DNA from: an uncultured virus (IMG/VR IMGVR_UViG_3300037088_000381)
Lineage: Duplodnaviria; Heunggongvirae; Uroviricota; Caudoviricetes
Strand: one strand, 5' to 3'
DNA length: 64,000 bases
IMG/VR virus record: IMGVR_UViG_3300037088_000381
A model generated the notes under the pieces. The model worked only from the letters and a program-made list of their open reading frames with translations. It searched no databases and was not told the DNA's origin. A program made the position numbers and the translations under genes. The stretch's first letter is position 1, and each line of letters opens with the position of its first letter. Positions 9,237-61,153 of this stretch are shown one piece after another.

Positions 9237-9259
9237 CTATTTCATATAAGGAGGTCTTT

Positions 9260-39653: not shown

Positions 39654-40160
39654 ATGCCCAGAATAAAATTCCGAGAAGGCTCCTCTCGATCTACAGGATA
39701 CTTCTACTGTCCTAAGTGTAAGAGAGAGTGGAGTGCCATGCTGTCCGAACCTGAAGTACCAGAAGAATGTCCCGATTGCAAATCAACAAAAGGAAACATT
39801 ATGAAAAAAGTAACCCCTCAAGCATATAACATTGGCAAGAACCCCTACGTCTTTAAATGCTTAGACATATCAATGGGGCACATAACCAAAAAGGATGCCG
39901 AGCTTCTTATAATAGATGACTCACATCCTGTTGCCCACGAAAAGTACCATAACAATCCCGTGGTCTCCTACGAATTTGAATACGGCTTCTTTGTTTTCGT
40001 CCCTGAAAATGATGAGGGCTATTCCAAAGACGCTCTCAAGTTCGGATACTCCAAAGCATTCGTAGAGGTCATGGACAAGGCCAGGAAACTTAAATGCAAG
40101 TTCATCCAGTTTGATGGTGACGGCATTGAGTATGATGACCTTCCAACCTTTAAATGGTAG
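39654..40160 (+). CDS. Zn-ribbon plus DUF5983-like protein
   Basis: LDIS.GHIT..D...YGFFV...AR...C....FD.DG....LP.F.W. Confidence 0.55.
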   Translation: MPRIKFREGSSRSTGYFYCPKCKREWSAMLSEPEVPEECPDCKSTKGNIMKKVTPQAYNIGKNPYVFKCLDISMGHITKKDAELLIIDDSHPVAHEKYHNNPVVSYEFEYGFFVFVPENDEGYSKDALKFGYSKAFVEVMDKARKLKCKFIQFDGDGIEYDDLPTFKW

Positions 40161-40187
40161 GTATCTTTAAAAAATAGTGTGCATTAC

Positions 40188-40216
40188 TTGAAAAACATAG
40201 TATAATACTGTAACAT
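40188..40216 (+). promoter_or_regulatory. Candidate sigma70-type promoter upstream of the cas operon
   Basis: TTGAAA-17bp-TAACAT, with a TATAAT at 40201 inside it. Confidence 0.45.
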
Positions 40217-40236
40217 GGTATAAGCATGGAGACAAA

Positions 40237-40434
40237 ATGAATTTCAAATTTTCACAAGATGAACTTAAGAACACAGGAAGCGGAGGCCTTGAGATTAAAA
40301 TCGAAGGCCTCACAGGAGATCCCACGGATCAATCCCCAGGCACCAGTGTGTTCATTGAGAACTATGAAGGAAAAATCCTTTGCCATGTTTGGACTGACGG
40401 CAAACAAGACTGTCAGTCCATAACACTAACTTAA
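40237..40434 (+). CDS. Small hypothetical protein preceding the cas genes
   Basis: GGAG RBS, 65 aa. Confidence 0.65.
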   Translation: MNFKFSQDELKNTGSGGLEIKIEGLTGDPTDQSPGTSVFIENYEGKILCHVWTDGKQDCQSITLT

Positions 40435-40447
40435 AAGAAAGGAGCTT

Positions 40448-42310
40448 ATGCTCTACAATGAACTCAACCTTATTAAGAAATTAATGGATGGGCCTCAATC
40501 TAAAGTTATAACCCTCCATCAATATTCTAAAGGTGCAGGGATACCTACCAACCCAAAGTTTGCCAAGACCACGGCCTGTCGCCTTATTAAAGTTATTAGG
40601 GATGAGCATGGACGATTAGCTTTCCAGTATGAAAGGCATCCAGCAGTATTGGATTCCTTTATGGATGCCTACTCACTCTTCTATAAGAACTGTCCGAGTG
40701 ATACAAAGGGTACACCTCATTATTACTTTGGAGATATATTCCTGGGAGTTAATATAAAATCCAGTAACGATCTCCTTAATAGGATCATACCTTTTTACTT
40801 TGAAGAAAAGTTTCCTTTGGTAACAGAATTCAATCAGCTTATCAGGGATGAGTTCCTTAATTTCTGGTCCTACGTAGAACAGATGTTTGACCAGATAAAT
40901 AAGAATCCTATGGCTGATGGCATGAAAGACTTGAAAAAATATACTGGTATGTTTATTCACTTTGACTTCAGCGATGTAGCCGAGAGTGAGCATTGGTATA
41001 ACCTAAAAAGTATCATTGAGTTTCTAGACTACCTTGAACTCGAAGGACTTAAAAGAAATACTAAAGGCAAAGCTGCCTTCGACTACATACCTGAAGTCTC
41101 AGGCTACTCACTTAATAAAGGCTTCTTTCATACCGTGACCTCTGGGGATGAGAAAAGCGATAACCAGTTCCCAGGATTCGACCTTACACAAAAATATAAA
41201 TCCTTTAGCCTTGCTGAAGATCAACTCCGTAGCATCTTCTATTACTCTAAAACTTTAAAGAGGTGTCAGATTGGAATACCTGATTCTGCTCCTTACTGTT
41301 TCCGATTAATTCCAGTAGGATCATATAGCACTCAAAGTGCTGTAGATTATATCGACCATATAAAGGAACTCAGAAGAGGTGTACCCGAAGATCAACTAAA
41401 CAAATTGGAAAAGTTAGAGGATCAAGTTGTAAGTGAAGATGAAGAACCAGAGGAACTCGGATCTAGTTGGGACCCAACTGAACTTATCGCACAAGCCGCA
41501 GAAAAATGTGCTAAGGAAATGATCTCCTTCGATCTTATTCTTCTAAGGCTTGGCACTAAAGGTCCAGATGTAAACGTCGGTGAAATAAATAACATGTCTC
41601 GAAGTTCTCTAAGGAAAAACTTATCAGTCATTAAAGAAAAGGTTAATCAAATAAAGGACAAAAGAAAAGCAAGGACATCAGTGACAAGAGCTTTCTTTAA
41701 TGTACACTACAAAGGAAAAAGAAAGGGAGAAGATAAATACCAAGTTAAATTTGCCCGTATGATGCTCAAGCTTTATAGAGGCTTGTACTTTGGAGACCCC
41801 GAGCTTGATAAGATATTTCTTGATAGGGTGCATAAAGATATAAGAGAGACAGGAATGAAAAATTATTACGGGCTCAAAACTTCATATAGCCTTCTTAAAC
41901 TATTATCAAATAAAGGAGATGAGATGACAAAGTCCCAAGAACTAAGTAAGAGTCTCGGGCGACACTTAGCCCAAATCATGTGGCCCCTATCTTTCGTTAT
42001 CGGACGAAGATCAAGGAGCTTTGAAAAAGCTCAGGTAGGTCAGATACGATACCGAGTAGGAACTCTTCCACAAGTAGTAAGGCTCCTGGGAGAGTATCGT
42101 GGTCGTATATCATTGCATGCAAATGAGAGCCTTGGAAAAGATACTGAAAGAGTTGTTGATGTTGGTAGAGCTGGAAGAGCTCTACACGATGCCAACAGCA
42201 CTATTGAAACCCTTGAAAAAGAAAACTGCAAGTACGATCGAGACCAGTTGGTGCTAGGGTTCTTCGATGAGTATGACTTACAATGTTACCTTGCTTCAAA
42301 ACCTAAATAA
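40448..42310 (+). CDS. cas8: Type I CRISPR large subunit (Cas8b-like)
   Basis: 620 aa immediately before cas7/cas5/cas3; NQFPGF...YKSF motif; helical C-terminus with an internal RBS. Assigned mainly by position. Confidence 0.75.
   Translation: MLYNELNLIKKLMDGPQSKVITLHQYSKGAGIPTNPKFAKTTACRLIKVIRDEHGRLAFQYERHPAVLDSFMDAYSLFYKNCPSDTKGTPHYYFGDIFLGVNIKSSNDLLNRIIPFYFEEKFPLVTEFNQLIRDEFLNFWSYVEQMFDQINKNPMADGMKDLKKYTGMFIHFDFSDVAESEHWYNLKSIIEFLDYLELEGLKRNTKGKAAFDYIPEVSGYSLNKGFFHTVTSGDEKSDNQFPGFDLTQKYKSFSLAEDQLRSIFYYSKTLKRCQIGIPDSAPYCFRLIPVGSYSTQSAVDYIDHIKELRRGVPEDQLNKLEKLEDQVVSEDEEPEELGSSWDPTELIAQAAEKCAKEMISFDLILLRLGTKGPDVNVGEINNMSRSSLRKNLSVIKEKVNQIKDKRKARTSVTRAFFNVHYKGKRKGEDKYQVKFARMMLKLYRGLYFGDPELDKIFLDRVHKDIRETGMKNYYGLKTSYSLLKLLSNKGDEMTKSQELSKSLGRHLAQIMWPLSFVIGRRSRSFEKAQVGQIRYRVGTLPQVVRLLGEYRGRISLHANESLGKDTERVVDVGRAGRALHDANSTIETLEKENCKYDRDQLVLGFFDEYDLQCYLASKPK
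41924..42310 (+). CDS. cas11: Internally translated Cas11 small subunit (predicted)
   Basis: In-frame ATG at 41924 preceded by AAAGGAG inside cas8; 128 aa. Confidence 0.65.
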   Translation: MTKSQELSKSLGRHLAQIMWPLSFVIGRRSRSFEKAQVGQIRYRVGTLPQVVRLLGEYRGRISLHANESLGKDTERVVDVGRAGRALHDANSTIETLEKENCKYDRDQLVLGFFDEYDLQCYLASKPK

Positions 42311-42341
42311 CATATAACAAATTTCAAAAGGAGTTTTCACT

Positions 42342-43319
42342 ATGACTAATTTAAAAGTAAGACGCTCACAGTTAATTTTTATCTATGACTCAATCTTCTG
42401 TGTACCAAACGGCGATCCCTATACAGGGGAACAACGTTATGATGAAGCCACTTCAAGACCCCTCATCTCGGATGTTCGAATCAAAAGATTTGAAAGGGAT
42501 TTCTTTTTGTTCTTAAATATGCTTGACTCAAAAAATAATTATGACATCTACATGCAAGATGTCGATAAGACTCTTTTGGAAAATGATGAAATCAAAGGAT
42601 CAGGCTCTGAAGCACGGCTTAAAATATTAGCAAAGAAGTACGGACTCCAAGCAGCAAAACCTGAAGAGGGTGCTAAGAAAGGTAAGAAGAGTCCGAAGTT
42701 CGATGTTGATACCCTAATGAAAAAGTGTATTGATGTCCGACTGTTCGGTGGTGTATCAACTGCCGAAAGTAACAACTCAAAATTTACCGGCCCAATTCAA
42801 TTCGAGAATCTGAATCCTGCTCTTAATAAATGTGAACTTCGACGACATCAAAACACAACGGTCTTTCAATCGAGCATGGAAAAAGATCAAGGCTCAATGG
42901 GCACAACCAGTCTTGTCCCTTTCTCATTGAATCAAATCATCGGATACATTAACCCTTTCCTTGCCATGAAAACGGATCTGACAGAAGCAGACATCTCATT
43001 ATTTCTGGATGCAATGTGGAAATCAATCAACATCTGCACATCCAGAAGTAAGATCGGCCAAACCTCCCGCTTGCTATTAAGGATCAACCTTGTAGATCCA
43101 ATGGCAAAGATTGCTGACCTCCATAATAAAATTCGTATCAATGAAGCAGAAAGCTTTGACCTTCGTAGCCTCTCCGACATTACCTGGGACTTCTCGGGAC
43201 TCGTAACCTTAATAGCTTCGGACAAAGTTAAGGACGTAGAGTATCGAGTTGAAGATGCACTGGCCGATATCTTTCACAATCAAACCAGCTCCGTGGCCTC
43301 GAAACTTGTAAAGTTTTAA
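42342..43319 (+). CDS. cas7: Cas7 (Csh2/Cas7b family)
   Basis: PNGDP...SDVRIKR..RD; DVRLFG; TGPIQF; SRSK.GQ..R.L. Confidence 0.92.
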   Translation: MTNLKVRRSQLIFIYDSIFCVPNGDPYTGEQRYDEATSRPLISDVRIKRFERDFFLFLNMLDSKNNYDIYMQDVDKTLLENDEIKGSGSEARLKILAKKYGLQAAKPEEGAKKGKKSPKFDVDTLMKKCIDVRLFGGVSTAESNNSKFTGPIQFENLNPALNKCELRRHQNTTVFQSSMEKDQGSMGTTSLVPFSLNQIIGYINPFLAMKTDLTEADISLFLDAMWKSINICTSRSKIGQTSRLLLRINLVDPMAKIADLHNKIRINEAESFDLRSLSDITWDFSGLVTLIASDKVKDVEYRVEDALADIFHNQTSSVASKLVKF

Positions 43320-43333
43320 GTTATACAAACTAC

Positions 43334-43365
43334 GAGTGATAGGGTAACTCCTATCACTCCTTTTT
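43334..43365 (+). terminator. Hairpin between cas7 and cas5
   Basis: GAGTGATAGG-GTAACT-CCTATCACTC followed by CTTTTT. Confidence 0.65.
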
Positions 43366-43378
43366 AAAAAGGATATAT

Positions 43379-44056
43379 ATGAAAGGTATTGTATTTAAAC
43401 TCACTGGGCAGTATGGGCATTTTAAGCAACCCCAAACAAACAATAACCCCTGTACCTTTGCTTACATGCATAAGGTTGCAATCATAGGGTTCCTCGGAGC
43501 CGTCACAGGGATTGAACGAGAATTGATGGCAGTTTTATATCCACAGTTATGTGAGGATTTAATTTGCTCCATTAAATTACTCACCCCGATTGTTAAAGAG
43601 CCCCATGCTTTTACAAAAAGAATAGTCATTGAAGAATTTTTCTATGGTCAAGGACGAAGGTTTTGCGAGTACCTTAAAGATCCAGGTTATGAAATCACCC
43701 TGGCACTTAAAGGTGAACGATCGAAACAACAGTTCGAAGATTTCTGTCACAACATAAAAAATGATCTGGCAGTCTACCCGACTTCTTTCGGAGTAGTTAA
43801 TTGCCCGGCATACTTCGAGTTCATTAAAGACGTAGAGGTTTCAAATGAGTTGAACGGGCCCTTTGAAACAGATTCAATCATATCAGACACTCATGTGTTA
43901 GCTGATAATGATTTTGTTTCCGAACGGGTTCCAACTAATGAACCTCAAAACATGTTACATGCTGACCATGTTCTAACGGTTTGTGTTCAAGGTACTACCG
44001 TATCAACCTCTGGCCCATACAGAAAGGTTGACGGTAAATCTGTATGGTTCATGTAA
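43379..44056 (+). CDS. cas5: Cas5 (Cas5h, I-B-like)
   Basis: VF.L.G.YGHFK.P.TN....TF......A..G.LGA..G; EYLKDP.Y; G...CPA. Confidence 0.9.
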   Translation: MKGIVFKLTGQYGHFKQPQTNNNPCTFAYMHKVAIIGFLGAVTGIERELMAVLYPQLCEDLICSIKLLTPIVKEPHAFTKRIVIEEFFYGQGRRFCEYLKDPGYEITLALKGERSKQQFEDFCHNIKNDLAVYPTSFGVVNCPAYFEFIKDVEVSNELNGPFETDSIISDTHVLADNDFVSERVPTNEPQNMLHADHVLTVCVQGTTVSTSGPYRKVDGKSVWFM

Positions 44057-44072
44057 AAGGAAAGAGGTAAAC

Positions 44073-46622
44073 ATGATGGTATCTAAATACGTTAAAGAAC
44101 TTAAGTCCCATCCCCGTAAGACTCTTATCTGTCACATTACAGGGGTTCAGGATTGGGGTCTTAGGATCTATGATGATTACAGAGTTAGAACCTCTGCACT
44201 CTTTCACGATGTAGCTAAGATAACAAAAAACTTTCAAGATAAATTAGCTGGCAAAGATGTGAAAGATCTTTATACCAATCATGCTTACCTCTCTTTTTAT
44301 ACCATGCTTAACTATGTAGCTCAGCATGGATTCAAACCAGGCATAATCGAAAACAAAAAAGATCTTATCCTTATAGGAGCTTGTATCCTTAAACACCATG
44401 GAGGACTACCTAACCTTCATGAGATCATTAACGTAGAAGAATGGGATAGGATGAAAGCCTTCCTTGCAACAAACCCCTATCTTCCAACCGATGAGTTTAT
44501 GAATGCCGTTAAGTTAGAAAAAGAAGATATACATTTCTCTTTAAAGGACATAGCCCTATCCAGAATACACAGCGGCCAAAAAGCTTTATTCTCCCCAATA
44601 GGTTTAAGAAAAGCAATAGCCGATCCCCAGGCCCCAGGGATTAATGAACTTCAATTCTTTATAGACTTGAGATTATGTTTCTCAGCAATCGTTGCAGCTG
44701 ATAAAGGGGATGCAGGTAATCAAAAGATCTCAGATGATACTTATAAAGAAATGTCTAAGGTATACCAATCCAGAATTTGTACATACTTAAATGGCTTTAA
44801 CAATAAAACTATAACAGACTTAAACAAAGTCCGTACTGAAATCAGAACGACTTGTGTTAATAACCTATGTAGCACAATGAAAACTAATCCTGGGCAGCAT
44901 GTCTTCTCCCTTACCGAACCTACCGGGTCAGGTAAGACTGCGATCCTTCTTACTCTGGCGAATGAGATAATGAAAGAGAAGAAGGTAAACAAATGTGTAT
45001 ACAGCATTCCTTTCTTATCTATAACCGAGCAAGTATATGGGATCATAGAAGGTATCTTTGATAAGGAACAAGGATGTATTAAAAGAATGGATTGTAAAGC
45101 CCAGCCTGAGTTCGATGCCTCCGAGATTGGTGAGAACTATGGCGAAGAGAACATGCTTAAGAAATTAATGTCTGCCTTACGAAAGGCTCTTAAAGGTCAA
45201 ACAATAAGAGAGGAAGCCGTTGAGGATGTTCTAAGAACGGATTACTTAGAGTCTACTTTTAATTACCCACTTATCGTAACAACGTTTGTTCAGTTCTTTC
45301 AATCATTCACTACATCAACTAACAAAGGCTTGATGAGGTTTGCTTCTCTTCAAAATTCTGTGTTCTTAATTGATGAGATTCAAGCAATGCCTTCAAGGTT
45401 ATATTCATTCTTTGTGGCTCTGCTTGATGAGTTCTGCCGTAAGTGTAATAGCTATGCTATCATATCTACAGCAACAATGCCATGCTTTAAAATTCCTATC
45501 AATGCTCCAGAAGCTAAGTTGATGTTTAAAAATTATCAGATTCCAATTGAGATAGGGGATCTAAATCATTTCGCTTATGATGTCTTCAACCGTTATGAGC
45601 TTCATGTGGATAAGGGTTCAATTGATATAGATGAGTTAGTTCTTCGAGTAAGAAAAGAAACTGAAGCAACCCTTGTTGTTCTTAACACCGTTAATGATTC
45701 TCGTGAAGTGTATGATAAACTTAAAGTCTCTGTAGACTGTCCTGTAAAATTAATGAACTCAAACTTTCATGCCCAAGACCGCAGAGTTATACTTAAACAA
45801 TGTCAGGATATGTTAGATGCTGGAACAAAATTTTTCTTTGTCACGACCCAGTTAATTGAAGCTGGTGTAGACATAGACTTTCCGATAGTCTATCGAGACA
45901 TCGCTCCACTACCTAATCTTATTCAAACGGCAGGGCGCTGTAATAGAGAAGGGCGCTTAAGGTATACAGACGGGAGTCGACGACGGGGTATCGTACATAT
46001 CTTTATGCTCAAGGATGAATCTCAACCAGTACTAAGAGCTCAGTATATTTATAATGGTCTTGATGCTCCTTTTCTTGATTATGCCATTCGTGTTTTGGTT
46101 AACGTTCCTCAAGTAATCTTTGAAGAAAAAAATCTTCTCAAACTTCAACAGGATTACTTTACTTACATGGCTCAGTCTCTAAAATTCGGGGCCTGGGAAA
46201 AGAGTTATGAAAGATGTAACTTCATTCAGCAGATACAAAATTTTAGGTTCAAAGATATTGGAGCATACACAGTCATACCTGCAACGGCATACGGAGCCCA
46301 GGAAAGATTTTATGTTCCAATAGATGAGCATGATAGATCATTCGAAAAGTTATATGAGTTAATGGCCGAAAAAGAAAACATAGATCAAGCAGGAAACCAA
46401 AACAATAAAGATAATCTTAGGGAGATAATTTTTAGGGGCACACAACTACATGTTCATCTAAAGAAAATGATGGATAGAGTTGTGCAGGTAAATATTAAAG
46501 AGGAAGAAGTTAAGAACTTAGTTGAGTATGAAGCAGCAACCTGTTATATGTATAAACTAAAACCTGGATATTATACTCAGGGTCCTGAAGGGCATAGTGA
46601 GTATGGATTCCAAAAGGAGTGA
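44073..46622 (+). CDS. cas3: Cas3 HD nuclease/SF2 helicase
   Basis: FHDVAK and HHG (HD domain); PTGSGKT, IDEIQ, STAT, TQLIEAGVDIDF, QTAGRCNR. Confidence 0.95.
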   Translation: MMVSKYVKELKSHPRKTLICHITGVQDWGLRIYDDYRVRTSALFHDVAKITKNFQDKLAGKDVKDLYTNHAYLSFYTMLNYVAQHGFKPGIIENKKDLILIGACILKHHGGLPNLHEIINVEEWDRMKAFLATNPYLPTDEFMNAVKLEKEDIHFSLKDIALSRIHSGQKALFSPIGLRKAIADPQAPGINELQFFIDLRLCFSAIVAADKGDAGNQKISDDTYKEMSKVYQSRICTYLNGFNNKTITDLNKVRTEIRTTCVNNLCSTMKTNPGQHVFSLTEPTGSGKTAILLTLANEIMKEKKVNKCVYSIPFLSITEQVYGIIEGIFDKEQGCIKRMDCKAQPEFDASEIGENYGEENMLKKLMSALRKALKGQTIREEAVEDVLRTDYLESTFNYPLIVTTFVQFFQSFTTSTNKGLMRFASLQNSVFLIDEIQAMPSRLYSFFVALLDEFCRKCNSYAIISTATMPCFKIPINAPEAKLMFKNYQIPIEIGDLNHFAYDVFNRYELHVDKGSIDIDELVLRVRKETEATLVVLNTVNDSREVYDKLKVSVDCPVKLMNSNFHAQDRRVILKQCQDMLDAGTKFFFVTTQLIEAGVDIDFPIVYRDIAPLPNLIQTAGRCNREGRLRYTDGSRRRGIVHIFMLKDESQPVLRAQYIYNGLDAPFLDYAIRVLVNVPQVIFEEKNLLKLQQDYFTYMAQSLKFGAWEKSYERCNFIQQIQNFRFKDIGAYTVIPATAYGAQERFYVPIDEHDRSFEKLYELMAEKENIDQAGNQNNKDNLREIIFRGTQLHVHLKKMMDRVVQVNIKEEEVKNLVEYEAATCYMYKLKPGYYTQGPEGHSEYGFQKE

Positions 46623-47170
46623 CAATGTATAAGTTTATTACCAATCAAATTAAATTCAGTAGTGAAGACGGGCACATACGGCATCAAGAAATCCAGAAAC
46701 ACTTTCCTTATGGAAGTGATGTTCGATTCCGTGCTTATCCAGATAAGGTTATCATATGCAGTTCCAATCTTCCCGTTACTGGAATCTCTTGTGATATGGT
46801 TGTTCTACAACCGTATAATATAGGAGACCAGTTGAAGTTTAATATATTAGCCAATGCTACCTACACTGTGAATGATAACATCCTCCCTGTCCTGGGGATT
46901 AAAAACCTTGTAGGATGGTTTCAAGACCAGGCATCAAAGCACGGCTTTGATATTAAAGCATGGGAGAAAATAATTTCCCTGGGGTTTGTAAAAGCAACTA
47001 AAGAAGATCAGATAAGGACTCATAACTCGGTTGAGTTCCAAGGGAAGTTAAAAGTTATGGATGCCAATAAGTTTAATAAGACTATCGGAAGTATAAAGTC
47101 AGATCATTATGGGATAGGTCGAGCTAAGTATTGTGGCTTCGGTATCCTGGAGGTAGACAATGTATCTTGA
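46619..47170 (+). CDS. cas6e: Cas6e (I-E type), short
   Basis: GDQLKF...AN.T; WF...A..HGF; V.FQG.L.V.D...F; GIGRAKYCGFGIL Gly-rich loop. Confidence 0.85.
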   Translation: MTMYKFITNQIKFSSEDGHIRHQEIQKHFPYGSDVRFRAYPDKVIICSSNLPVTGISCDMVVLQPYNIGDQLKFNILANATYTVNDNILPVLGIKNLVGWFQDQASKHGFDIKAWEKIISLGFVKATKEDQIRTHNSVEFQGKLKVMDANKFNKTIGSIKSDHYGIGRAKYCGFGILEVDNVS

Positions 47171-48005
47171 TCTCGAGTGTAAACTACCGCATGCTTACAT
47201 GGAAATGGGAAGACTCTGTGTGAAAGGGGCTTCCCTTCACTATGTAAATGAAACAACAGACATAGTTATTCCTGTGGGAAGAATTGAAAGTTTATTTATT
47301 GGCCCAGGAGCTACTATAACACATAGTGCAATTAAATTATGTTCATGGGCTAATTGTACAGTGGTATGGGTAGGAGAAGACATATCAAAATGTTATGCTG
47401 TATCTTCCTGTAACTCAAGATCATCGAAGAATTTAATAAAACAAATTTATTTATACGAGCATAAGAAGTCTCTTCTAATTAAACGTTATTGTATGAAGAG
47501 ATTTGGAAGAAAAGTTTTCTTGGGTAAAATAGATGAAGATAAAATAAGAGGGCTAGAAGGCAGCTATATGAAAAAGATTTATATAGAGTGTGCGAAAAAA
47601 TACGGTATCCCTTGGAATGGGAGAGTTAAGCACGGAGAATGGGATAAGCAGACTTTATATAACAAGTCTATTTCAATATGTAACTCTTATCTATATGGGA
47701 TATGTTGTGCTGTCCTCAATACTTTAGGGTACTCTACAGCTCTCGGATTGTTACATAAAGGAGACATGTTATCTCTAGTTTTTGATATTGCAGATCTTTA
47801 TAAAATAAATTTCTCTCTTCCTTTAGGTTTTGAAATAGCTTGTGATTATAAGGATAAAAAAATTCCAGATCAAGAAGTAGAAAAAGAATTAAGGCACAGA
47901 ACCTTACAAAAGTTTCAAGACTGTAAACTTCTAACACTTATCTTAACAGACTTAGAAGATATTTTTAATGATAGCAATATGTGTAGTGAAAAACATAACG
48001 AATAA
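47160..48005 (+). CDS. cas1: Cas1, I-E type
   Basis: IPVG....L.IGPGATITH.A; VWVGE; RGLEG; YG..W.GR; LGY...LG..H.G...S.VFDIADLYK. Confidence 0.93.
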   Translation: MYLDLECKLPHAYMEMGRLCVKGASLHYVNETTDIVIPVGRIESLFIGPGATITHSAIKLCSWANCTVVWVGEDISKCYAVSSCNSRSSKNLIKQIYLYEHKKSLLIKRYCMKRFGRKVFLGKIDEDKIRGLEGSYMKKIYIECAKKYGIPWNGRVKHGEWDKQTLYNKSISICNSYLYGICCAVLNTLGYSTALGLLHKGDMLSLVFDIADLYKINFSLPLGFEIACDYKDKKIPDQEVEKELRHRTLQKFQDCKLLTLILTDLEDIFNDSNMCSEKHNE

Positions 48006-48240
48006 AACAAAACTTATCTTGGCAGCATATCTATATGAAATACAAGTTAATGTTTTTGTTGGTACAATTAATTTTAAACTATCTGAAGAAATTTTAGTTT
48101 ACCTTAAAGAAAAAACAAAAGGTCGAGAACAATCTGTTTTCATAAAGGAGTGTAAGAAAACATATGAAGGATTTGACGTTCAATATATTAACTGTCCAAA
48201 AAGATATATTGATTTTGACGGGCTAAAATTTTTTAAATGA
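47968..48240 (+). CDS. cas2: Cas2, I-E type
   Basis: L..YL.E....VFVG; EGF.......R..DFDGL. Confidence 0.88.
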   Translation: MIAICVVKNITNKTKLILAAYLYEIQVNVFVGTINFKLSEEILVYLKEKTKGREQSVFIKECKKTYEGFDVQYINCPKRYIDFDGLKFFK

Positions 48241-48277
48241 CTTAAGTATTTAATATCACTTGTTTTAAGTGCTTAGG

Positions 48278-49895
48278 GTCTTCCCCGCTTATGCGGGGAT
48301 TGAATAAAGACAGCCTTCCAATTTTAGCTGTTCTTTAATGTCTTCCCCGCTTATGCGGGGATTGAATATCGATAGGTAAAACTGCAGTATCTTGATCTAG
48401 TCTTCCCCGCTTATGCGGGGATTGAATATAAGGCACCTCCATAATAATGTGATTTTTGTGTCTTCCCCGCTTATGCGGGGATTGAATAATCGATCTGTTG
48501 TCGATAGGCTTATATCGTTTGTCTTCCCCGCTTATGCGGGGATTGAATGGAAGAGGGAGGAGACGACATCGAGACTTATTTGTCTTCCCCGCTTATGCGG
48601 GGATTGAATTGGTTCCTTATCCCTGTTGCATAGAGAAGCTCAGTCTTCCCCGCTTATGCGGGGATTGAATAGACGGGGAAGGAGGGTACTTATTTGACAA
48701 GTCGTCTTCCCCGCTTATGCGGGGATTGAATAATGGTATCAGGAACAGGATATCGTTTAGAGACTATGTCTTCCCCGCTTATGCGGGGATTGAATTCTAC
48801 TTTTAATCTCATTAACCAAATCCAGAAGTCTTCCCCGCTTATGCGGGGATTGAATTTTAGCGTAATGACCAGCCCAGATCAGAGAACAGTCTTCCCCGCT
48901 TATGCGGGGATTGAATCTATAGGCAGGTGGCCTTGTCCGCCTCTCCTGCTGTCTTCCCCGCTTATGCGGGGATTGAATTCAACTACTCGGAAATGCGGCA
49001 TTAGGAAAATTGTCTTCCCCGCTTATGCGGGGATTGAATAAACCGCATAAGGAAGATCATCAAATAAAGCCTGTCTTCCCCGCTTATGCGGGGATTGAAT
49101 AGGGATTGAATATAAACGGCTCGATGAAATCTATGTAGTTCATGTCTTCCCCGCTTATGCGGGGATTGAATGGCGTGTGAGGTGCTAAATCAATCTGCAT
49201 AATGTCTTCCCCGCTTATGCGGGGATTGAATTGCTCGCAATGCCTTGAGATTGTCAATCATCCGTCTTCCCCGCTTATGCGGGGATTGAATATTTCTTTT
49301 ATCATTTCGGATAAGGGGTAATGTCTTCCCCGCTTATGCGGGGATTGAATCTATAGGCAGGTGGCCTTGTCCGCCTCTCCTGCGTCTTCCCCGCTTATGC
49401 GGGGATTGAATTCGATCGTGATCGTCAAGCTTGTTTTCTATCAGTCTTCCCCGCTTATGCGGGGATTGAATAGTTGTGTCCAAGTAAGAGCTAACTGGGT
49501 GTCTGTCTTCCCCGCTTATGCGGGGATTGAATTGTATAAATGTCCTCCTGCATTATTTCTAAACCGTCTTTCCCGCTTATAAGCGGGATTGAATAATCGG
49601 CTTTAGAAATGTCCGCGATGGTTCAGGAGTCTTCCCCATAAGCGGGGATTGAATGCATGATTTACATCGCATTATCACATCGTAGCCGTATTCCCCATAG
49701 TGGGATTGAATATTTAGGGCTGAATCAAAATGCCCATACCCATTATCTTCCCTATGTAAATGGGATTGAATTTCAAGAAGTGAGTCAATGTCTTGCTGAA
49801 CGTTACTATCTTCCTATCAATAACGGGATTGAATTTTAAAAGGTTTATTGTCTGACTTAAGATCGATGGCTTCCCATTAAGTTATGGGATTGAAC
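48278..49895 (+). CRISPR. CRISPR array with 27 repeats (21 identical 28-bp GTCTTCCCCGCTTATGCGGGGATTGAAT plus 6 degenerate distal repeats) and 26 spacers, mostly 32-33 bp
   Basis: Read directly from the sequence; degeneration at the cas-distal end fixes the orientation. Confidence 0.98.
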
Positions 49896-49970
49896 CTGCT
49901 TTTACCAAGAATGAAAAGAAACTTTATTATTCCCTAAAGCTATAGGGCTAATCATTAACAAGGAGTCAAT

Positions 49971-50735
49971 ATGATTTCTAATGTGGTACGTATCAGTGTA
50001 ACGAATAATTTTAACTGCACCGATAAAGAGTGGAAACAGGTTGACACTTTTGCTAAAGCAAATCCATACAAATACTTTTTCATTAACAGTAACATCCGAA
50101 CTCCGAAACTCGCAACCGTAACCAAGCATCCCTATAAGGTTGTGGTCACAGCGAATCCCGACCTACTCATGACCCAAGCCCAATTCAAAAAAGTAATAGA
50201 CAAGATTGACCTTATCAAATCCAAACTTGCCTTCGTCCGTGTAAAGTATATCCCGAACGATAAACAAATCTTCACCCTGATCGGGGCCTTGCTTAAAAGA
50301 AACATCCCCGTGATCTTGACCCTGCAACGATTCAATGGTAAGGCTTCTCTCCTTAAGTATACCGACTTATCTTTCTACAAGTTCTCTTGTAGCCGTTACC
50401 GTTTGAACGGACAAGAGCTCGAGCATATCCTGAAAGTTGTTGACGACTTCAACAAACTTGGATTCAAGATATGGGTCTGCGATCGTAAGGGCGAAGGTTG
50501 TGAGGGTTGCGGCTTATGTAGCAAGCTCACGATAGGTAAAGATTTAAAAATATCTTCCTTGAACCTTTCGACCTCTGGCATCTGCCCATACAATTGCGTG
50601 GATTGTTATGCCAAGACTATGCAAAGATTCTCTAAGGCCATGGGAAACAAACCCATCATCTACGATACGATTCGGCAGAATGAAAAACAGGCCGGCCGAC
50701 TTGAACATATCAAAGCACATCGAAAGGCTGCATAA
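49971..50735 (+). CDS. Putative Fe-S/radical-SAM-related protein
   Basis: CEGCGLC plus C-terminal CPYNCVDCYA (CxxxCxxC). Confidence 0.45.
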   Translation: MISNVVRISVTNNFNCTDKEWKQVDTFAKANPYKYFFINSNIRTPKLATVTKHPYKVVVTANPDLLMTQAQFKKVIDKIDLIKSKLAFVRVKYIPNDKQIFTLIGALLKRNIPVILTLQRFNGKASLLKYTDLSFYKFSCSRYRLNGQELEHILKVVDDFNKLGFKIWVCDRKGEGCEGCGLCSKLTIGKDLKISSLNLSTSGICPYNCVDCYAKTMQRFSKAMGNKPIIYDTIRQNEKQAGRLEHIKAHRKAA

Positions 50736-58242: not shown

Positions 58243-59310
58243 TTGGAACCATCAATGAGGAGGCCAACTATGACGTATAGAAACTTTGATCGCCCCGAAA
58301 AATCAAACGGACAGAAGCTTAAAGAAAATTTAATCTTCATGACCGTAGCGTGTATCTTTCTTAATATCATTGATAGAGCAATCGAATTCATAGCCAAGCC
58401 CCTTCGGACCCCAGTAAATGACGATACGGATGATTTTAAAGAAGAAAAGGATGCAGATAAAAGACAAGCACGAATTGAATACTATGCAAGGATCTCCGAT
58501 GATGATACCGATCCCATGTATCAGTTCCAGCTTCGCCACCTTACTGATGTTGAAAAGTTTCGATCTCGATCTGATACCCCTACTAATAAAGCATTAAAGG
58601 ATTGGTATCTATCCTGGAAACGTGGTGAAGTAATCGACAGTGCTTTAAGATGGGCTCCAGATGTATTACTCGAAGATGGTGAATCCTATAACCCTGCATT
58701 CATCCAGTATATGAAGATTCAACTTGATCTCCATAAAAAGACTGCCTCCTTCTTCAAAAGGAAAGTCTTTTCAAACACGATCAATAAATATTATCCTGAA
58801 CTCTCTTCTAACCTGACCAGGCTTGAACGTGACCTTGCTGCCCTGGAATCCTTAGTAGAGGAAGAAAAATTAAAGATCGATCTTAAAGAAGCCATTAAAA
58901 CCTACGGCCTACCCGATGACCTTGCAGATTACCTTATCGAGAATAATGCAGGACCTGCAAAGCTCAAGGCCCAGGCCCAGTCTCTTAAAGAGTTTCACGA
59001 TCGACGTATGCAGTCCGTTACTTGTATCTGTGCTATGGAAAATAAACTTACTATGGACTGTGCTCAGGTCGTAGATAAAGTTGTTACCGAATTCAAACTT
59101 CCTGCAAAGGTTGGATTAGCCTATGCAAATAAAGAGATCACCATTGCCGACATTACAAACTTAGTTGAATCCATGGATTATCTCTGTGGTACTTATGGTG
59201 ATGATATCTACCACATAAGGGAGGGTGAGAACTTCACTATCTATGACGAATTTATCGACGAGTTCCTAAAGGAATATAAAGCTAAAAAACGTCAGCTTAA
59301 ATTCAAATAA
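58243..59310 (+). CDS. Hypothetical protein
   Basis: 355-aa ORF. Confidence 0.7.
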   Translation: MEPSMRRPTMTYRNFDRPEKSNGQKLKENLIFMTVACIFLNIIDRAIEFIAKPLRTPVNDDTDDFKEEKDADKRQARIEYYARISDDDTDPMYQFQLRHLTDVEKFRSRSDTPTNKALKDWYLSWKRGEVIDSALRWAPDVLLEDGESYNPAFIQYMKIQLDLHKKTASFFKRKVFSNTINKYYPELSSNLTRLERDLAALESLVEEEKLKIDLKEAIKTYGLPDDLADYLIENNAGPAKLKAQAQSLKEFHDRRMQSVTCICAMENKLTMDCAQVVDKVVTEFKLPAKVGLAYANKEITIADITNLVESMDYLCGTYGDDIYHIREGENFTIYDEFIDEFLKEYKAKKRQLKFK

Positions 59311-59327
59311 TAAGGAAACTATTCATT

Positions 59328-59795
59328 ATGAACCTTGAAATTGCCAAACACGTAGCGGAACAAACATTGATTCAAGCCCAGGACCTTATGAGGAAGAATA
59401 GTTTCATTGAGCCTATCTTCCTCGTTCTAACTGATGAATCCGTTAACCAGGACTGGCCCCAGATGGAGATCGGGACCTTCGAAGGATTTGAAGTTTTAAT
59501 AGAGAAACACTATAAAACTTCCGAAGCATTAGTAATGATCTTTGCTTCTATCACTCGAGACCACGATGATAACTTTAAAGAACCCGTAGAAGATCTATCT
59601 GAAACCGATGAAGAGAATTATAAATGCCTGTTATGTATCGTGCATACTAAAGAAGATACTGTAGTAATGCAGAGCGTGTATGCAGAAGAAAACGGCAAGT
59701 TTCTTTTTATAAATAATCCATGGGATAAACCTATTGAAGACACCAATGGGAGTGTCTTCTCCAATCCTTATAAAAAATCTTCTGGTAAAGTATAA
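59328..59795 (+). CDS. Hypothetical protein, possible distant paralog of 11742..12260
   Basis: Similar N-terminal pattern (A...L..N..I....F). Confidence 0.6.
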   Translation: MNLEIAKHVAEQTLIQAQDLMRKNSFIEPIFLVLTDESVNQDWPQMEIGTFEGFEVLIEKHYKTSEALVMIFASITRDHDDNFKEPVEDLSETDEENYKCLLCIVHTKEDTVVMQSVYAEENGKFLFINNPWDKPIEDTNGSVFSNPYKKSSGKV

Positions 59796-59802
59796 AAAGA
59801 AC

Positions 59803-59831
59803 TTGACAGCAATAAATAATCGCTGTATATT
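59803..59831 (+). promoter_or_regulatory. Sigma70-type promoter
   Basis: TTGACA-17bp-TATATT. Confidence 0.75.
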
Positions 59832-59861
59832 TAGATACTAACACAATATCGAGGTAATCAA

Positions 59862-60302
59862 ATGAGTCACAACATAGCAATAAAGACAGCAATTAAGGAC
59901 GGGAAATGCCTGGTCCGAGCCTTAGAGAGGCTCGGGTTCAAGGGCCAGGTTGAAGTACATGAATTCCCACAGCATCTGTACGGTTATCAAGGTGATATGC
60001 GAAAAGAAAAAGCCCATGTTATTGTTCGAAGAAAACATGTTGGCTCAAGTTCCAATGACATCGGATTTGAAAACGTAGGCGGATTTTACACAGCCTACAT
60101 AAGTGAATTCGACGAAGGCACTGGAACATATTCTGGTCGGCATGATACTGCCCGATGCAATAAAGTTTGGCAAAATAAACTGCTCGTCCATTACGGAGTC
60201 GAAGTAGCGAAACTCGAATGCGAAAAGAAAAAAATAAGGTATGAAGAATATGTGGATCCGCAAGACGATCAACAACGTATCCAACTTAAAACCTGGTTAT
60301 AA
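59862..60302 (+). CDS. DUF1257 domain protein
   Basis: MSH...IKT.IKD...L..AL..LG; LYGYQGD.R...A....R......SNDIGF. Confidence 0.8.
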   Translation: MSHNIAIKTAIKDGKCLVRALERLGFKGQVEVHEFPQHLYGYQGDMRKEKAHVIVRRKHVGSSSNDIGFENVGGFYTAYISEFDEGTGTYSGRHDTARCNKVWQNKLLVHYGVEVAKLECEKKKIRYEEYVDPQDDQQRIQLKTWL

Positions 60303-60313
60303 AGGAGACTCCA

Positions 60314-60526
60314 ATGGCTGAAATGATACTCATATTCAATTGGGATGGCACAATAACCAAGAAGACTAAAGGTTTCGTTGGAAGCGAATGCGTTTCCAAA
60401 ACAAAGTTTATGGAAGATGCTTTAGGAACCACGGTGGGTGAAAGAAAGAAGACAGCAGAATATTATGAAACAGAAAAATCCAGCGAATCCCAACGAATCG
60501 AAAACCGAGGTAACTCTAACTTTTGA
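60314..60526 (+). CDS. DUF2997 domain protein
   Basis: DG......GF.G..C...T...E.ALG.......TAEYY. Confidence 0.8.
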   Translation: MAEMILIFNWDGTITKKTKGFVGSECVSKTKFMEDALGTTVGERKKTAEYYETEKSSESQRIENRGNSNF

Positions 60527-60947
60527 GGCTGACACAGTGAGTGCCTCTTGGTATCACCCTAAACTAAACCCGATCTTATGTGCTTTATGTGAAAAGGATT
60601 GTAACAATCAACCAAAGCCAGCACCGGGAACATTAACGGTTAACAGGTGTGTTAATATTAACCCCTACTGCGGATAAGGATTAAATATGCTTACTCTACT
60701 GGCCATCGTTGGTTTATGTTACCTCTTCTCAAAGTTATCAAAAGGATTAACCCGTATAGGCAACATACTTGAAGCACTCGGAGATAAGTTAACCAATCAC
60801 GACTATAAAAGGAATTATCCTCATCCCGAGGACCTTGAAGAGCGAAAGAAACATTTTAAGAAGGCTCGAAAAGAAATCATAGATGCAGACTACAACAACC
60901 ATATCGAGAAACAAATCGATGAGCTTACAAAATAAAGAAAGATAAGT

Positions 60948-61142: not shown

Positions 61143-61153
61143 AGGATGTTCTT

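Follow-up and report, generated by a model that had tools for sequence, protein, structure and literature searches.

A conserved CRISPR-Cas variant on a giant extrachromosomal element that combines type I-B effector genes with type I-E processing and adaptation genes

Subtypes of type I CRISPR-Cas systems are classified by their effector module, and Cas8b is the signature of subtype I-B. The nearest canonical relatives of the locus described here form a I-B clade found mostly in Bacteroidota (loci L010-L037, for example in Emticicia aquatica, Hanamia caeni and Porphyromonas gingivicanis), whose genes for a Cas8b-like protein, Cas7b, Cas5b and a Cas3 with fused HD and helicase parts are ordered as in our locus, again without a separate cas11 gene. 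Unlike our locus, these systems also have an upstream cas6 (TIGR01877), cas4, cas1b (443-453 bits) and a generic cas2, and their repeats are unstructured (-1 to -2.3 kcal/mol), about 30 nt long and spaced at 64-67 nt, although the 3' end, ATTGAA(A)T, resembles ours. The I-E system of E. coli K-12 (casABCDE-cas1-cas2) shares with our locus the order casE-cas1-cas2-array and the absence of cas4. Type I-C systems contain Cas4 and have no Cas6, the RNA being processed by Cas5c. Cas11c of type I-C is reported to be made from an internal start, M489, of Cas8c, and internal translation of Cas11 has been published for I-B, I-C and I-D. CRISPR-Cas systems with spacers against other phages have also been described on giant mobile genomes, namely those of huge phages (Al-Shayeb et al. 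2020, PMC7162821) and, as type I-F, that of Vibrio phage ICP1. According to the text of PMC7162821, Cas1, Cas2 and Cas4 are lacking in almost all huge-phage systems, and its Table S1 includes a type III system of a megaphage in which cas6e and a Cas1 of I-E type occur, so that I-E parts again accompany a foreign effector; we found no I-B, Cas8b or hybrid system of the present kind in the portions of its supplements that were searched.

The window, by which we mean the whole 64-kb stretch of DNA analyzed here, taken from a contig of at least 474 kb, contains between positions 40448 and 49895 seven genes in the order cas8b-like, cas7b, cas5b, cas3 (HD and helicase), cas6e, cas1e and cas2e, followed by a CRISPR array (Table 1). 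We consider it likely that the locus is a complete, probably active type I CRISPR-Cas system belonging to a conserved variant lineage that had not been filed before. The first-pass annotation of this DNA had claimed seven cas genes and a 27-repeat array of mixed I-B/I-E make-up, without cas4, cas6b, cse1 or cse2, and its description of the parts held up. All seven genes were found intact and co-directional, 27 repeats were counted, and Cas4, Cas6b, Cse1 and Cse2 gave no match in a PADLOC search of the 119 ORFs of the window and were likewise absent among the ORFs scanned with Pfam. The per-gene HMMs, the folds and the trees agree on the mixed make-up: Cas8, Cas7, Cas5 and Cas3 group with I-B, the nearest solved fold of Cas8 being Cas8c, and Cas6, Cas1 and Cas2 group with I-E. 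The scores of Cas7, Cas5 and Cas6e all fall under the NCBIfam curated cut-offs.

Table 1. Positions in the window of the features of the CRISPR-Cas locus and the basis of each assignment
Feature	Coordinates	Strand	Basis or description
cas8b-like large subunit, 620 aa	40448..42310	+	PADLOC Cas8b1 97 bits, residues 218-561
Cas11-like small subunit, 128 aa, predicted product of internal translation from cas8 Met493	41924..42310	+	internal SD and ATG
cas7, I-B type, 325 aa	42342..43319	+	Pfam Cas_Cas7 2e-40
Terminator-like hairpin between cas7 and cas5	43334..43359	+	11-bp stem, then T-rich tail (consensus scan)
cas5, I-B type, 225 aa	43379..44056	+	PADLOC Cas5b 87 bits
cas3, fused HD nuclease and SF2 helicase	44073..46622	+	PADLOC Cas3b 394 bits
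cas6e pre-crRNA endoribonuclease, 183 aa	46619..47170	+	Pfam CRISPR_assoc 1.2e-11; PADLOC Cas6e 53 bits
cas1, I-E type, 281 aa	47160..48005	+	TIGR03638 Cas1e 222.1 bits, above cut-off 215.6
cas2, I-E type, 90 aa	47968..48240	+	TIGR01873 Cas2e 34.4 bits, above cut-off 33.15
Leader and leader-repeat junction	48241..48277	+	AT-rich, 37 nt, AGG end
CRISPR array, 27 repeats of 28 nt (GTCTTCCCCGCTTATGCGGGGATTGAAT), 26 spacers	48278..49895	+	repeat scan and fuzzy matching
Spacer 20, perfect protospacer in tailed-phage contig	49472..49504	+	33/33 match, IMG/VR contig L046

Sequence searches of Pfam, NCBIfam and PDB with the cas8-like protein returned no match. Its AF2 model (pLDDT 88.6) gave type I-C Cas8c as best fold matches (Foldseek E 4e-4), the best solved structures being those of D. 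vulgaris and N. lactamica (8dex, 8g9s-u; Z 11-13 over residues 1-616; for 8dex_I, VIA Z 13.1, rmsd 4.5 and 343 residues aligned), while the I-B structure 8h67_L came at rank 21 (E 1). Relatives of this protein at 24-25% identity were found within canonical I-B operons of the Bacteroidota clade, to which the identity is 43% for Cas7 (locus L010), 34-35% for Cas3 and about 36% for Cas5. Cas7 scored 146.8 bits with TIGR02590 Csh2, under the curated cut-off of 171.55, and 149 bits with the PADLOC Cas7b profile versus 102 bits with Cas7c; Cas5 scored 56.4 bits with TIGR02592 Cas5h, under its curated cut-off of 97. For Cas7, Cas5 and Cas3 the HMMs prefer I-B over I-C, and the locus, unlike I-C, has a Cas6e. 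The cas3 ORF opens at GTG 43983, but the ATG listed in Table 1, which is preceded by a SD-like motif, is the likely start; cas3_core (146.9 bits) and cas3_HD (52.8 bits) both exceed their cut-offs, and the long ORF carries HD at residue 75, GSGKT at 315 and QTAGR at 648. Within cas8, the in-frame ATG at 41924 follows AAGGAG with a 5-nt gap, and a SD-like motif with an in-frame ATG occurs in 6/6 variant cas8 genes examined, where the product would be 127-131 aa long. Because the internal ribosome binding site and ATG are present in 6/6 genes, a separate Cas11 is predicted, and internal translation from cas8 probably makes up for the lack of a small-subunit gene. The C-terminal region from Met493 is a helical bundle in the AF2 model, and this start parallels M489 of Cas8c as reported for type I-C.

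The second half of the operon resembles type I-E. Cas6e scored 36.5 bits with CasE, under the curated cut-off of 45.2, and its profile search of the PDB found Cse3/CasE alone; the model superposes on E. coli CasE and T. thermophilus Cse3 with TM 0.72-0.76 versus 0.37-0.43 for Cas6b. As in these I-E proteins there is a G-rich loop, and His22 aligns with E. coli CasE His20, which we take to be catalytic; 8/8 variant sequences keep both His22 and the GIGxxKxxGxG loop unchanged. Cas1 shares only 29% of its residues with E. coli Cas1 (E 2e-42), yet its RGLEGS, LLHKG and VFDIAD segments align with the corresponding E. coli segments, which presumably hold the active-site residues E141, H208 and D221, and it reached 25 bits with the Cas1b profile, whose cut-off is 304. 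Cas2 is 26% identical to E. coli Cas2 (E 1e-11). Unlike type I-E, the window has no Cse1/Cas8e, Cse2/Cas11e, Cas7e or Cas5e, and its Cas3 is I-B-like; unlike almost all huge-phage systems as the text of PMC7162821 describes them, it has Cas1-Cas2.

The seven-gene order and the array recur in L001, L002, L004 and L008, that is, in 4/4 metagenome loci scanned fully, and BLAST identified the variant gene order also in L005, L006 (where the locus is cut) and L009; Cas8 identity among the variant loci is 33-63%. It is unlikely that the joint between cas3 and cas6e is an assembly artefact because it is carried by seven independent contigs. In each tree the variant is set apart: a branch with 100% SH-aLRT splits the variant rows from 27 I-B rows for Cas7 and from 22 I-B rows for Cas3, and in the Cas1 tree a variant clade of 31 rows (95-97% support) stands apart from 46 other Cas1e rows, on a branch separate from that of E. 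coli. The subclades window+L001+L002 and L004/5/6+L008 recur in the Cas7, Cas3 and Cas1 trees. Cas1 relatives at 40-80% identity came from metagenomes only; an identity gap lies below 40%, and named I-E Cas1e proteins begin at 37% or less. Judged from these comparisons and from the repeat described below, the variant is no one-off chimera; it represents an old and conserved lineage that has a deep branch of its own in the Cas1 tree and a co-adapted repeat. The earlier reading as a working chimera therefore stands only in part, since the system looks functional (Cas1 and Cas6e retain their catalytic residues and motifs, the leader end shows spacer turnover and a spacer matches a phage) but, as a conserved old lineage, is not a single chimera.

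Of the repeats in the window array, 21 are identical, five decayed ones were found via fuzzy matching, and the 27th (49868-49895), also decayed, was identified by eye. The spacers are mostly 32-33 nt long (range 31-36 nt, with one of 43 nt); one is duplicated and another begins with a 10-nt partial repeat. The AGG/GT leader-repeat junction is common to five variant loci, and the position of the leader end is supported by the decayed repeats at the opposite end and by spacer turnover at this end in L004 vs L005. The window repeat RNA folds into a 7-bp stem with a 4-nt loop at -15.1 kcal/mol, equal in energy and shape to the E. coli I-E repeat, whose stem bases are identical (TTCCCCGC-N4-GCGGGGAT). 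Variant repeats fold at -15.1, -12.9 and -8.4 kcal/mol, versus -1.0 and -2.3 for the I-B relatives and -15.1 for E. coli, and the repeat spacing is 60-61 nt in the variant, 61 nt in E. coli and 64-67 nt in the I-B relatives. Five variant repeats have GGGGATTGAAT in common. A compensatory G-C to A-U change is seen in the variant stem, with 36/36 cells pairing, on the basis of six sequences and one compensatory pair, and 28/500 shuffles were equally good. At the 3' end, ATTGAA-T of the window repeat lines up with the ATTGAAAT/C of the closest canonical I-B relatives, and the 3' part is TTGAAT in the window vs AAACCG in E. coli I-E. The repeat itself, by its sequence and predicted fold, is mixed, with an E. 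coli-type GC hairpin and a I-B-like 3' end.

L004 and L005 are identical in Cas7 and Cas3 and have two trailer spacers as well as the downstream flank in common, but their leader-side spacers are different (8 vs 22); we read such leader-end differences between near-identical loci, together with the perfect match of window spacer 20, as evidence of activity in nature. When spacers were searched for targets, as the first-pass annotation had suggested, two of four spacer fragments were matched in the viral collection and two were not; the whole window array gave no match in phage and plasmid collections. The protospacer of spacer 20 lies on the minus strand of L046 (15285-15317), the contig of a small tailed phage with genes for TerL, portal, major head protein and tape measure, and L005 spacers 7 and 22 matched another TerL/portal/MCP/TMP contig at 31/32 and 30/32 positions. 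The two protospacer 5' flanks end in GAC and TCC and, with n=2, define no PAM.

Under the effector-based rule, with Cas8b as the I-B signature, the locus could be regarded as a divergent member of the single subtype I-B whose I-E labels were over-read from weak HMM matches, as the Cas6e score under the NCBIfam cut-off would allow. We think this very unlikely. The genes do not all fall in one known subtype, as the effectors are I-B while Cas1e and Cas2e exceed the curated I-E cut-offs, with Cas1b far below its own; the top fold and profile matches of Cas6e are all I-E; Cas4 and Cas6b, present in canonical L010, L011 and L016, are absent from the window and the four scanned variant loci; and the hairpin and spacing of the repeat are I-E-like. 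A recent one-off recombinant or assembly chimera, whose halves need not cooperate, would need only a single breakpoint to join a I-B core (cas8-7-5-3) to a I-E 3' end (casE-cas1-cas2-array) arranged as in E. coli K-12. This reading is largely refuted, and we give it almost no chance: the joint recurs in seven or more independent contigs, among which Cas8 identity falls to 33%, the trees of both halves are congruent, Cas1 at no more than 37% identity to named I-E proteins has its own deep clade, the repeat has features of both halves, and the arrays, with up to about 37 repeats, are long and vary from locus to locus. It is also quite improbable that the locus is a decaying remnant or serves repression or another non-immune role, to which the six decayed distal repeats, the duplicated spacer and the spacer starting in a partial repeat might point, as the seven ORFs are intact with their motifs kept, including Cas3 HD and helicase, 21 repeats are identical, close relatives turn over leader-end spacers, and distal repeats commonly decay in arrays that are active.

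The locus sits on a giant extrachromosomal element, with contigs of its family running from 442 to 590 kb. We lean towards a huge phage, but the earlier label of a phage-encoded system is unproven for this element, whereas the published huge-phage systems sit on phages. It is a serious possibility, if not the one that we favor, that what carries the system is a giant plasmid-like element, another kind of extrachromosomal element or an island of a host that has been poorly sampled, in which case the system would be an ordinary element or host defence against tailed phages and no phage weapon. Neither the window (about 119 ORFs) nor the flanking DNA of five related loci yielded a capsid, terminase, portal or tail gene, the flanks of L001, L002, L004/5/6 and L008 likewise gave no gene for structure or packaging, and no variant relatives were found in the viral-contig collection. 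A FtsK/SpoIIIE ATPase (176 bits), AAA ATPases and an IS transposase adjoining L008 suit plasmids as much as phages, and tailed phages are the spacer targets expected of a cellular or plasmid defence. On the side of a phage, about 85% of the window ORFs have no family match and nearly all genes are co-directional; several HNH homing endonucleases, a RecE-like exonuclease VIII, a nucleoside 2-deoxyribosyltransferase, a 5'-3' deoxyribonucleotidase, RtcB and a MoxR/VWA pair match phage families; and conjugation, partition and replication-initiator families were not found among the ORFs scanned. Also on this side, the close family is missing from 185,579 species genomes and, among phage records, RtcB was matched best in an uncultured phage of 735 kb (47% identity). 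In that phage the three window proteins tried (Cas7, a 468-aa ORF and an AAA ATPase) had no match, an empty answer being uninformative in that search.

For the conserved variant, we infer the cleavage site, the composition of the complex, Cas11 translation and the PAM as parts of a model in which the repeat would be co-adapted to both modules. A I-B-type module (Cas8b-like, about six Cas7b, Cas5b, Cas3 and probably the internal-start Cas11) would recognize and degrade the target, while a I-E-type module (Cas6e, Cas1e and Cas2e, without Cas4) would process crRNA and acquire spacers. The first 21 nt of the repeat form the GC hairpin, which Cas6e is expected to recognize and to cleave at the 3' base, so that the 7 nt remaining on the next crRNA (AUUGAAU; predicted handle 7 nt vs 8 nt in E. 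coli I-E) would approximate the 8-nt I-B handle for Cas5b and Cas8b. The mature crRNA would be about 61 nt long (7 + 32/33 + 21), like that of the I-E Cascade, and Cas1e-Cas2e would insert 32-33-bp spacers at the cas2-proximal repeat. The terminator-like hairpin that separates cas7 from cas5 may serve to adjust how much Cas7 is made relative to the downstream proteins.

Our ORF map resolves the locus into seven co-directional, closely packed genes followed by a repeat array, and the families of these genes were assigned with Pfam, NCBIfam and PADLOC. The per-gene HMMs of NCBIfam and PADLOC place Cas8, Cas7, Cas5 and Cas3 nearest to type I-B and Cas6, Cas1 and Cas2 nearest to type I-E, which is the mixed make-up that the first-pass annotation had described. 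The gene set, the array and the absence of cas4, Cse1, Cse2 and an I-B Cas6, also claimed there, were borne out within the readable 64 kb by the ORF map and the three family collections, because PADLOC finds no further Cas family (Cas4, Cas6b, Cse1, Cse2) among the 119 window ORFs. NCBIfam gave no match to Cse1/Cas8e or Cse2/Cas11e within the locus, and the Cas6 model TIGR01877, present in the I-B relatives L010 and L016, was absent from the window and from four loci of the variant lineage. The Cas1b model of NCBIfam reaches 25 bits on the window Cas1 against a cut-off of 304. As in type I-E, Cas1e and Cas2e occur without Cas4, each above its curated cut-off. Type I-C lacks Cas6, has its pre-crRNA processed by Cas5c and contains Cas4, whereas the window has Cas6e, no Cas4 and a Cas5 that is best matched by Cas5b. 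Three I-B features, namely Cas6b, Cas4-Cas1b and an unstructured repeat, are missing from the variant, and the corresponding I-E features are found. The Makarova classification papers reportedly file systems by effector module, and by its effector the variant would be filed under I-B.

Family assignments of the seven genes of the locus
Gene	Pfam/NCBIfam	PADLOC	Remark
cas8-like	no family	Cas8b1, 97 bits, residues 218-561	620 aa
cas7	Csh2, 146.8 bits (NCBIfam), below curated cut-off 171.55	Cas7b 149 versus Cas7c 102	
cas5	Cas5h, 56.4 bits (NCBIfam), below curated cut-off 97	Cas5b 87	
cas3	two NCBIfam domain models, each above cut-off	Cas3b 394	fused HD-helicase
cas6e	CasE, 36.5 bits (NCBIfam), below cut-off 45.2	Cas6e 53	
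cas1e	222.1 bits (NCBIfam), above cut-off 215.6		
cas2e	34.4 bits (NCBIfam), above cut-off 33.15		

The structural model of the window Cas8 is confident (pLDDT 88.6, pTM 0.84), and its only clear structural relatives are Cas8c chains of type I-C (Foldseek E 4e-4 to 5e-2; against Cas8c, VIA, Z 13.1 and rmsd 4.5 Å for 343 aligned residues spanning 1-616); the solved I-B Cascade chain 8h67_L came at rank 21 with an E of 1 in Foldseek. These matches to Cas8c place the large subunit, as modelled, in the Cas8b/Cas8c kind and not with Cse1. Cas8b is the subtype signature of type I-B, and the I-B label of the large subunit is a sequence-based assignment that draws on the HMMs and on the operons of its relatives, those at 24-25% identity sitting in canonical I-B operons. 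The C-terminal region of Cas8 is a helical bundle in the predicted model, and an AAGGAG motif, five bases and an in-frame ATG (Met493) are found where this bundle begins. All six variant cas8 genes examined have such an SD-like motif followed by an in-frame ATG, with a predicted product of 127-131 aa. According to a bioRxiv preprint (10.1101/2020.04.18.045682), Cas11 is made by internal translation in types I-B, I-C and I-D, and the Cas11c of D. vulgaris starts at M489 of Cas8c. The likeness of the internal SD and ATG to this published arrangement suggests that the lack of a small subunit is probably only apparent, with Cas11 made from an internal start within cas8. Type I-B also has no separate cas11 and obtains its small subunit from within cas8, and at the level of sequence the variant would agree with it.

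The window Cas3 keeps its HD (residue 75), GSGKT (315) and QTAGR (648) motifs, and its start is probably an ATG, not an upstream GTG. A PDB profile search with eight variant Cas6e sequences returned exclusively Cse3/CasE chains as top matches, and the Cas6e model (pLDDT 80.7) has a TM of 0.72-0.76 to E. coli CasE and T. thermophilus Cse3 versus 0.37-0.43 to Cas6b. His22 of the window Cas6e aligns with His20 of E. coli CasE, which we take to be the catalytic residue, and both His22 and the GIGxxKxxGxG loop are invariant in the eight sequences; a catalytic His and a G-rich loop are likewise features of the Cas6e of type I-E. The window Cas1 is 29% identical to that of E. coli (E 2e-42); its RGLEGS, LLHKG and VFDIAD motifs are retained and line up with the segments of the E. 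coli protein that presumably hold E141, H208 and D221.

The array consists of 27 repeats and 26 spacers, the spacers being mostly 32-33 nt; 21 of the repeats are identical (28 nt), and the six at the end away from cas2 are progressively decayed. The period of the variant arrays is 60-61 nt, compared with 61 nt in E. coli and 64-67 nt in the I-B relatives, and a 28-29-nt hairpin repeat with 32-33-nt spacers is also what type I-E has. Five distinct variant repeats were compared with that of E. coli K-12, and all 12 stem bases, together with the flanking TT and AT, are common to the window and E. coli repeats. All 36 stem cells pair, one pair alternating between G-C and A-U in three of six sequences and another showing U-G. 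The covariation support for the stem is modest, since 28 of 500 shuffles do as well. The variant repeats fold at -15.1 (window), -12.9 and -8.4 kcal/mol, compared with -15.1 kcal/mol for E. coli and -1.0 and -2.3 kcal/mol for repeats of the I-B relatives, so that the window repeat differs in its stable hairpin from the unstructured repeat on which Cas6b acts in type I-B.

Repeats of the variant arrays and of E. coli
Source	Repeat
Window	GTCTTCCCCGCTTATGCGGGGATTGAAT
L001	GTCTTCCCCACACAGGTGGGGATTGAAT
L002	GTTTTCCCCGCACTTGCGGGGATTGAAT
L004/L005	GTTTGCCTCACGCATGTGGGGATTGAAT
L008	GTTTCCCCCACACATGTGGGGATTGAAT
E. coli K-12, read from the genome	GAGTTCCCCGCGCCAGCGGGGATAAACCG

The window repeat closes with the seven bases ATTGAAT, which align with the terminal ATTGAAAT/C of the repeats of the I-B relatives, and columns A22-A27 are invariant in nine aligned repeat sequences. 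The rest of the window repeat is also largely similar to the repeats of these relatives; judging from this wider likeness, the repeat may derive from an I-B repeat by gain of a hairpin rather than by recombination. Cas6e of type I-E cleaves at the 3' base of the stem, and the same cleavage in the variant would give crRNAs in which a guide of 32-33 nt lies between a 7-nt AUUGAAU handle and a hairpin of 21 nt. The repeat would keep an I-E hairpin for Cas6e and an I-B-like handle for Cas5b and Cas8b. As the length of the spacers is that of the I-E integrase, guides of I-E size must fit the I-B Cas7 filament.

The combination of I-B and I-E genes is not a one-off. A word-indexed search found eight close homologues of the window large subunit, the window copy itself being recorded on four contigs (the longest of 474,422 bp), and an exhaustive profile-free search gave 93 Cas8 relatives. 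A scan with the Cas8 alignment yielded 22 metagenome loci, nine of which (L001-L009) have 32-63% Cas8 identity. The order cas8-cas7-cas5-cas3-cas6e-cas1e-cas2e-array was found in all four loci scanned in full (L001, L002, L004 and L008), and the same genes were found by BLAST in L005, L006 (cut) and L009, while L003 and L007 are too short for a call of gene order. The other 13 metagenome loci and all 15 loci from species genomes (14 labelled Bacteroidota and one Oscillospiraceae) have a Cas8 identity of only 22-28%. Three of these relatives, L010, L011 and L016, are canonical I-B loci with cas8, cas7, cas5, cas3, cas4, cas1b (443-453 bits) and cas2, and L010 and L016 also have cas6; the remaining I-B labels rest on Cas7 and Cas3 homology and, for ten loci, on I-B-like repeats as well. 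Searches of 185,579 species genomes and of the viral-contig collection gave no close member of the variant.

Branches of 100% SH-aLRT divide eight variant rows from 27 I-B rows in the Cas7 tree and seven variant rows from 22 I-B rows in the Cas3 tree, both trees coming from a quick search with a midpoint root. The Cas1 search gave about 30 metagenome-only proteins at 40-80% identity, some of them on contigs of 589,645, 148,975 and 120,760 bp, then a gap, and then named I-E Cas1e proteins (Methanocella, Planctomycetaceae, Ignavibacteriaceae, Helarchaeota) at 37% or less. With Cas1b as the outgroup, the variant forms a clade of 31 rows (95-97% support), separate from a clade of 46 rows (86% support) to which E. 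coli Cas1e and the named I-E proteins belong, and it groups with the Cas1e rows and not with Cas1b, in a tree whose base is poorly supported and in which E. coli is a long branch. The split of the window, L001 and L002 from L004, L005, L006 and L008 recurs in all three trees, and therefore the two modules travelled together; effector and I-E genes were already joined before the loci diverged to about 33% Cas8 identity. There is a small discordance, in that the window Cas1 and Cas2 are nearer to L002 (79% and 58%) and the effector genes are nearer to L001.

The arrays carry signs of activity, one of them being that repeat decay in the window is confined to the end distal to cas2. An AGG|GT leader-repeat junction is common to five loci. 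L004 and L005, whose Cas7 and Cas3 are identical, share two trailer spacers and the downstream flank and have different spacers on the cas2 side (8 versus 22), a pattern that is expected from ongoing polarised acquisition. The 43-nt spacer 14 and the duplicated spacers 11 and 18 of the window are traces of aberrant integration and of repeated acquisition or local recombination.

The first-pass annotation had proposed a comparison of the spacers with phage and mobile-element sequences. The whole window array had no match in the phage and plasmid collections; the viral collection was searched with four 22-nt fragments, two of which matched, the 22-mers of window spacers 11/18 and 10 finding nothing among the viral contigs. 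Spacer 20 of the window matches at 33 of 33 positions a 20,261-bp tailed-phage contig that encodes a large terminase, portal, head-morphogenesis protein, major head protein, neck and tape measure, with the protospacer in the ORF directly after the tape measure; the GC content is 40.8% in this contig and about 40% in the window. Spacers 7 and 22 of L005 share one site (31/32 and 30/32) in an 18,474-bp contig with terminase, portal, major head and tape-measure genes, the site lying in an ORF upstream of the terminase, and this pair suggests that one target was sampled more than once as its variants diverged. The 5' flanks of the protospacers on the spacer-sense strand, ..TGAC and ..ATCC, belong to two different systems and define no PAM. 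The terminase of the target phage is nearest (30-33%) to phages of Riemerella, Chryseobacterium, Cellulophaga and Croceibacter, a kinship that hints at a Bacteroidota host. A comparison of 126 spacers from six variant arrays with the window and 37 loci returned chance matches only, of 20 nt or less.

The genes around the locus were examined for the nature of its carrier. Nearly all window ORFs are co-directional and small, and most have no family match. Those with one include a MoxR-like ATPase with a VWA/metallopeptidase partner, a phosphoesterase, a 5'-3' deoxyribonucleotidase, ClpS, an FtsK/SpoIIIE ATPase, an HTH protein, AAA ATPases and RtcB, and the flanks of related loci encode HNH endonucleases, a RecE-like exonuclease VIII, a helicase, methyltransferases, a nucleoside 2-deoxyribosyltransferase and one IS transposase. 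A block of six genes is syntenic between the window and L002, and single genes, in scattered positions, are also found in L001 and L004/L008; these contigs therefore belong to one element family. We concluded that the carrier is a giant extrachromosomal element, and a huge phage is the more likely reading, to which we give slightly better than even chances. The best phage-record match of the window RtcB is in a 735-kb uncultured phage (47% identity); three other window proteins tested (Cas7, the 468-aa ORF and an AAA ATPase) have no match in that phage, and the 5.3 kb around its RtcB has nothing but RtcB in common with the window. No capsid, terminase, portal or tail genes were found in the 64 kb of the window, part of a contig of at least 474 kb (PHROGs on about 73 ORFs of at least 87 aa, the remainder by Pfam or PADLOC), or among about 60 ORFs in the flanks of five related loci. 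Families for conjugation, partition or replication were likewise not found. The phage collection contained no DNA near-identical to 40000-50000, no match to 58243-59310, one weak match to Cas7 (26%) and only generic phage ATPases for the window AAA ATPase (28-34%). Single-protein patterns of Cas7 found nothing in viral and genome contigs, and viral contigs gave nothing for the Cas8 alignment or for the element-specific protein query A4 and one ATPase match (31%) for query A5. A Borg-like carrier, a reading prompted by the perfect tandem repeat at the window start, was set aside because the window has no other tandem repeats apart from those of the CRISPR array; the tandem repeat may mark a contig end or a terminal repeat.

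The analysis shows a real, complete and conserved locus with marks of recent use. We found no description of an I-B effector joined to Cas6e-Cas1e-Cas2e in the full-text literature, subscription journals and classification supplements aside. Al-Shayeb et al. (2020, PMC7162821) state that the CRISPR systems of huge phages nearly all lack Cas1, Cas2 and Cas4, and their supplements include a megaphage type III system with cas6e and an I-E Cas1; the available portions of a 2024 review (PMC11656645) mention no such hybrid. The variant may have arisen by an ancient fusion, in which an I-B interference module was joined to an I-E module for processing and acquisition and the repeat came to serve the two. 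Module exchange between CRISPR subtypes is known in outline, and a natural, conserved case that shows the changes needed for two halves to cooperate is rarely available. Our fuller reading, of huge phages of about 440-590 kb or larger with a self-sufficient fused immunity and a co-adapted repeat that actively acquire spacers against competing small tailed phages, is tentative, and we put it at somewhat below even chances. If it is true, self-immunisation that needs no Cas1-Cas2 from the host would be shown in huge phages for the first time. A carrier that proved to be a huge phage would be one of the rare phages that encode their acquisition machinery themselves, and its spacers would then be a record of warfare between phages. 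The variant is of clear interest to CRISPR specialists, as it raises hypotheses on which crRNA features each module reads, on the capping of an I-B Cascade by Cas6e and on how the PAM choice of a Cas4-less Cas1e is matched to Cas8b, and the compact seven-gene system is of possible engineering use.

Coordinates of the features (window positions unless a locus is named)
Position	Feature	Remark
1-201	tandem repeat	perfect 74-bp unit, 2.7 copies
1515-1575 (+)	Twister-P5 ribozyme match, RF02684	48 bits; gathering score 37.6
1516-2157	ORF, 213 aa	GTG start; no family match
2158-2229 (+)	Twister-P5 ribozyme match, RF02684	46.7 bits; gathering score 37.6
6001-12000	strong positive GC skew	0.42, 0.33, 0.28 versus about 0-0.1 elsewhere; dense with 64-170-aa ORFs
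8801-9040	DUF6117	sole family match in 6001-12000
14299-15420	WGR-domain ATP-dependent ligase	matches PADLOC WGR model
21150-21746	ORF, 198 aa	matches only C-terminal part of PtuA/Septu-like AAA ATPases, 39 bits
40448-48240	the seven cas genes	
41924	internal ATG of cas8	
43334-43359	terminator-like hairpin between cas7 and cas5	11-bp stem and T-rich tail; could attenuate transcription, giving Cas7 excess
44073	probable ATG of cas3	
48917, 49351	spacers 11 and 18	identical, with differing neighbours
49073-49143	region of spacer 14 (49101)	opens with 10-nt partial copy of repeat end, GGGATTGAAT
58243-63999	cassette in common with L002 (129-6688)	
61154-62560	468-aa ORF of the cassette	protein-atlas leads weak, sigma-factor-like
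L005 12151-12182, 13066-13097	similar spacers	4 of 32 positions different; same phage-contig site

The cassette that the window shares with L002 includes, among others, a 355-aa, a 155-aa and two small ORFs, a weak DUF1257-like ORF (20 bits versus a cut-off of 22.2) and an AAA ATPase that matches phrog_8638 (375 bits) and is 73% identical to its L002 copy; the L002 copy of the cassette has a DUF3150. SD-like motifs precede 67 of the 110 plus-strand window ORFs, compared with a background of 13.5%. Bacteroidota rarely use SD sites, and this abundance contrasts with the pointers to Bacteroidota given by 14 of the 15 nearest cellular Cas relatives and by the phages nearest to the spacer target. 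The two Twister-P5 matches bracket the 213-aa ORF exactly, and it could be a ribozyme-flanked gene cassette. The PtuA-like ORF and the WGR ligase may be fragments of defence or counter-defence systems.
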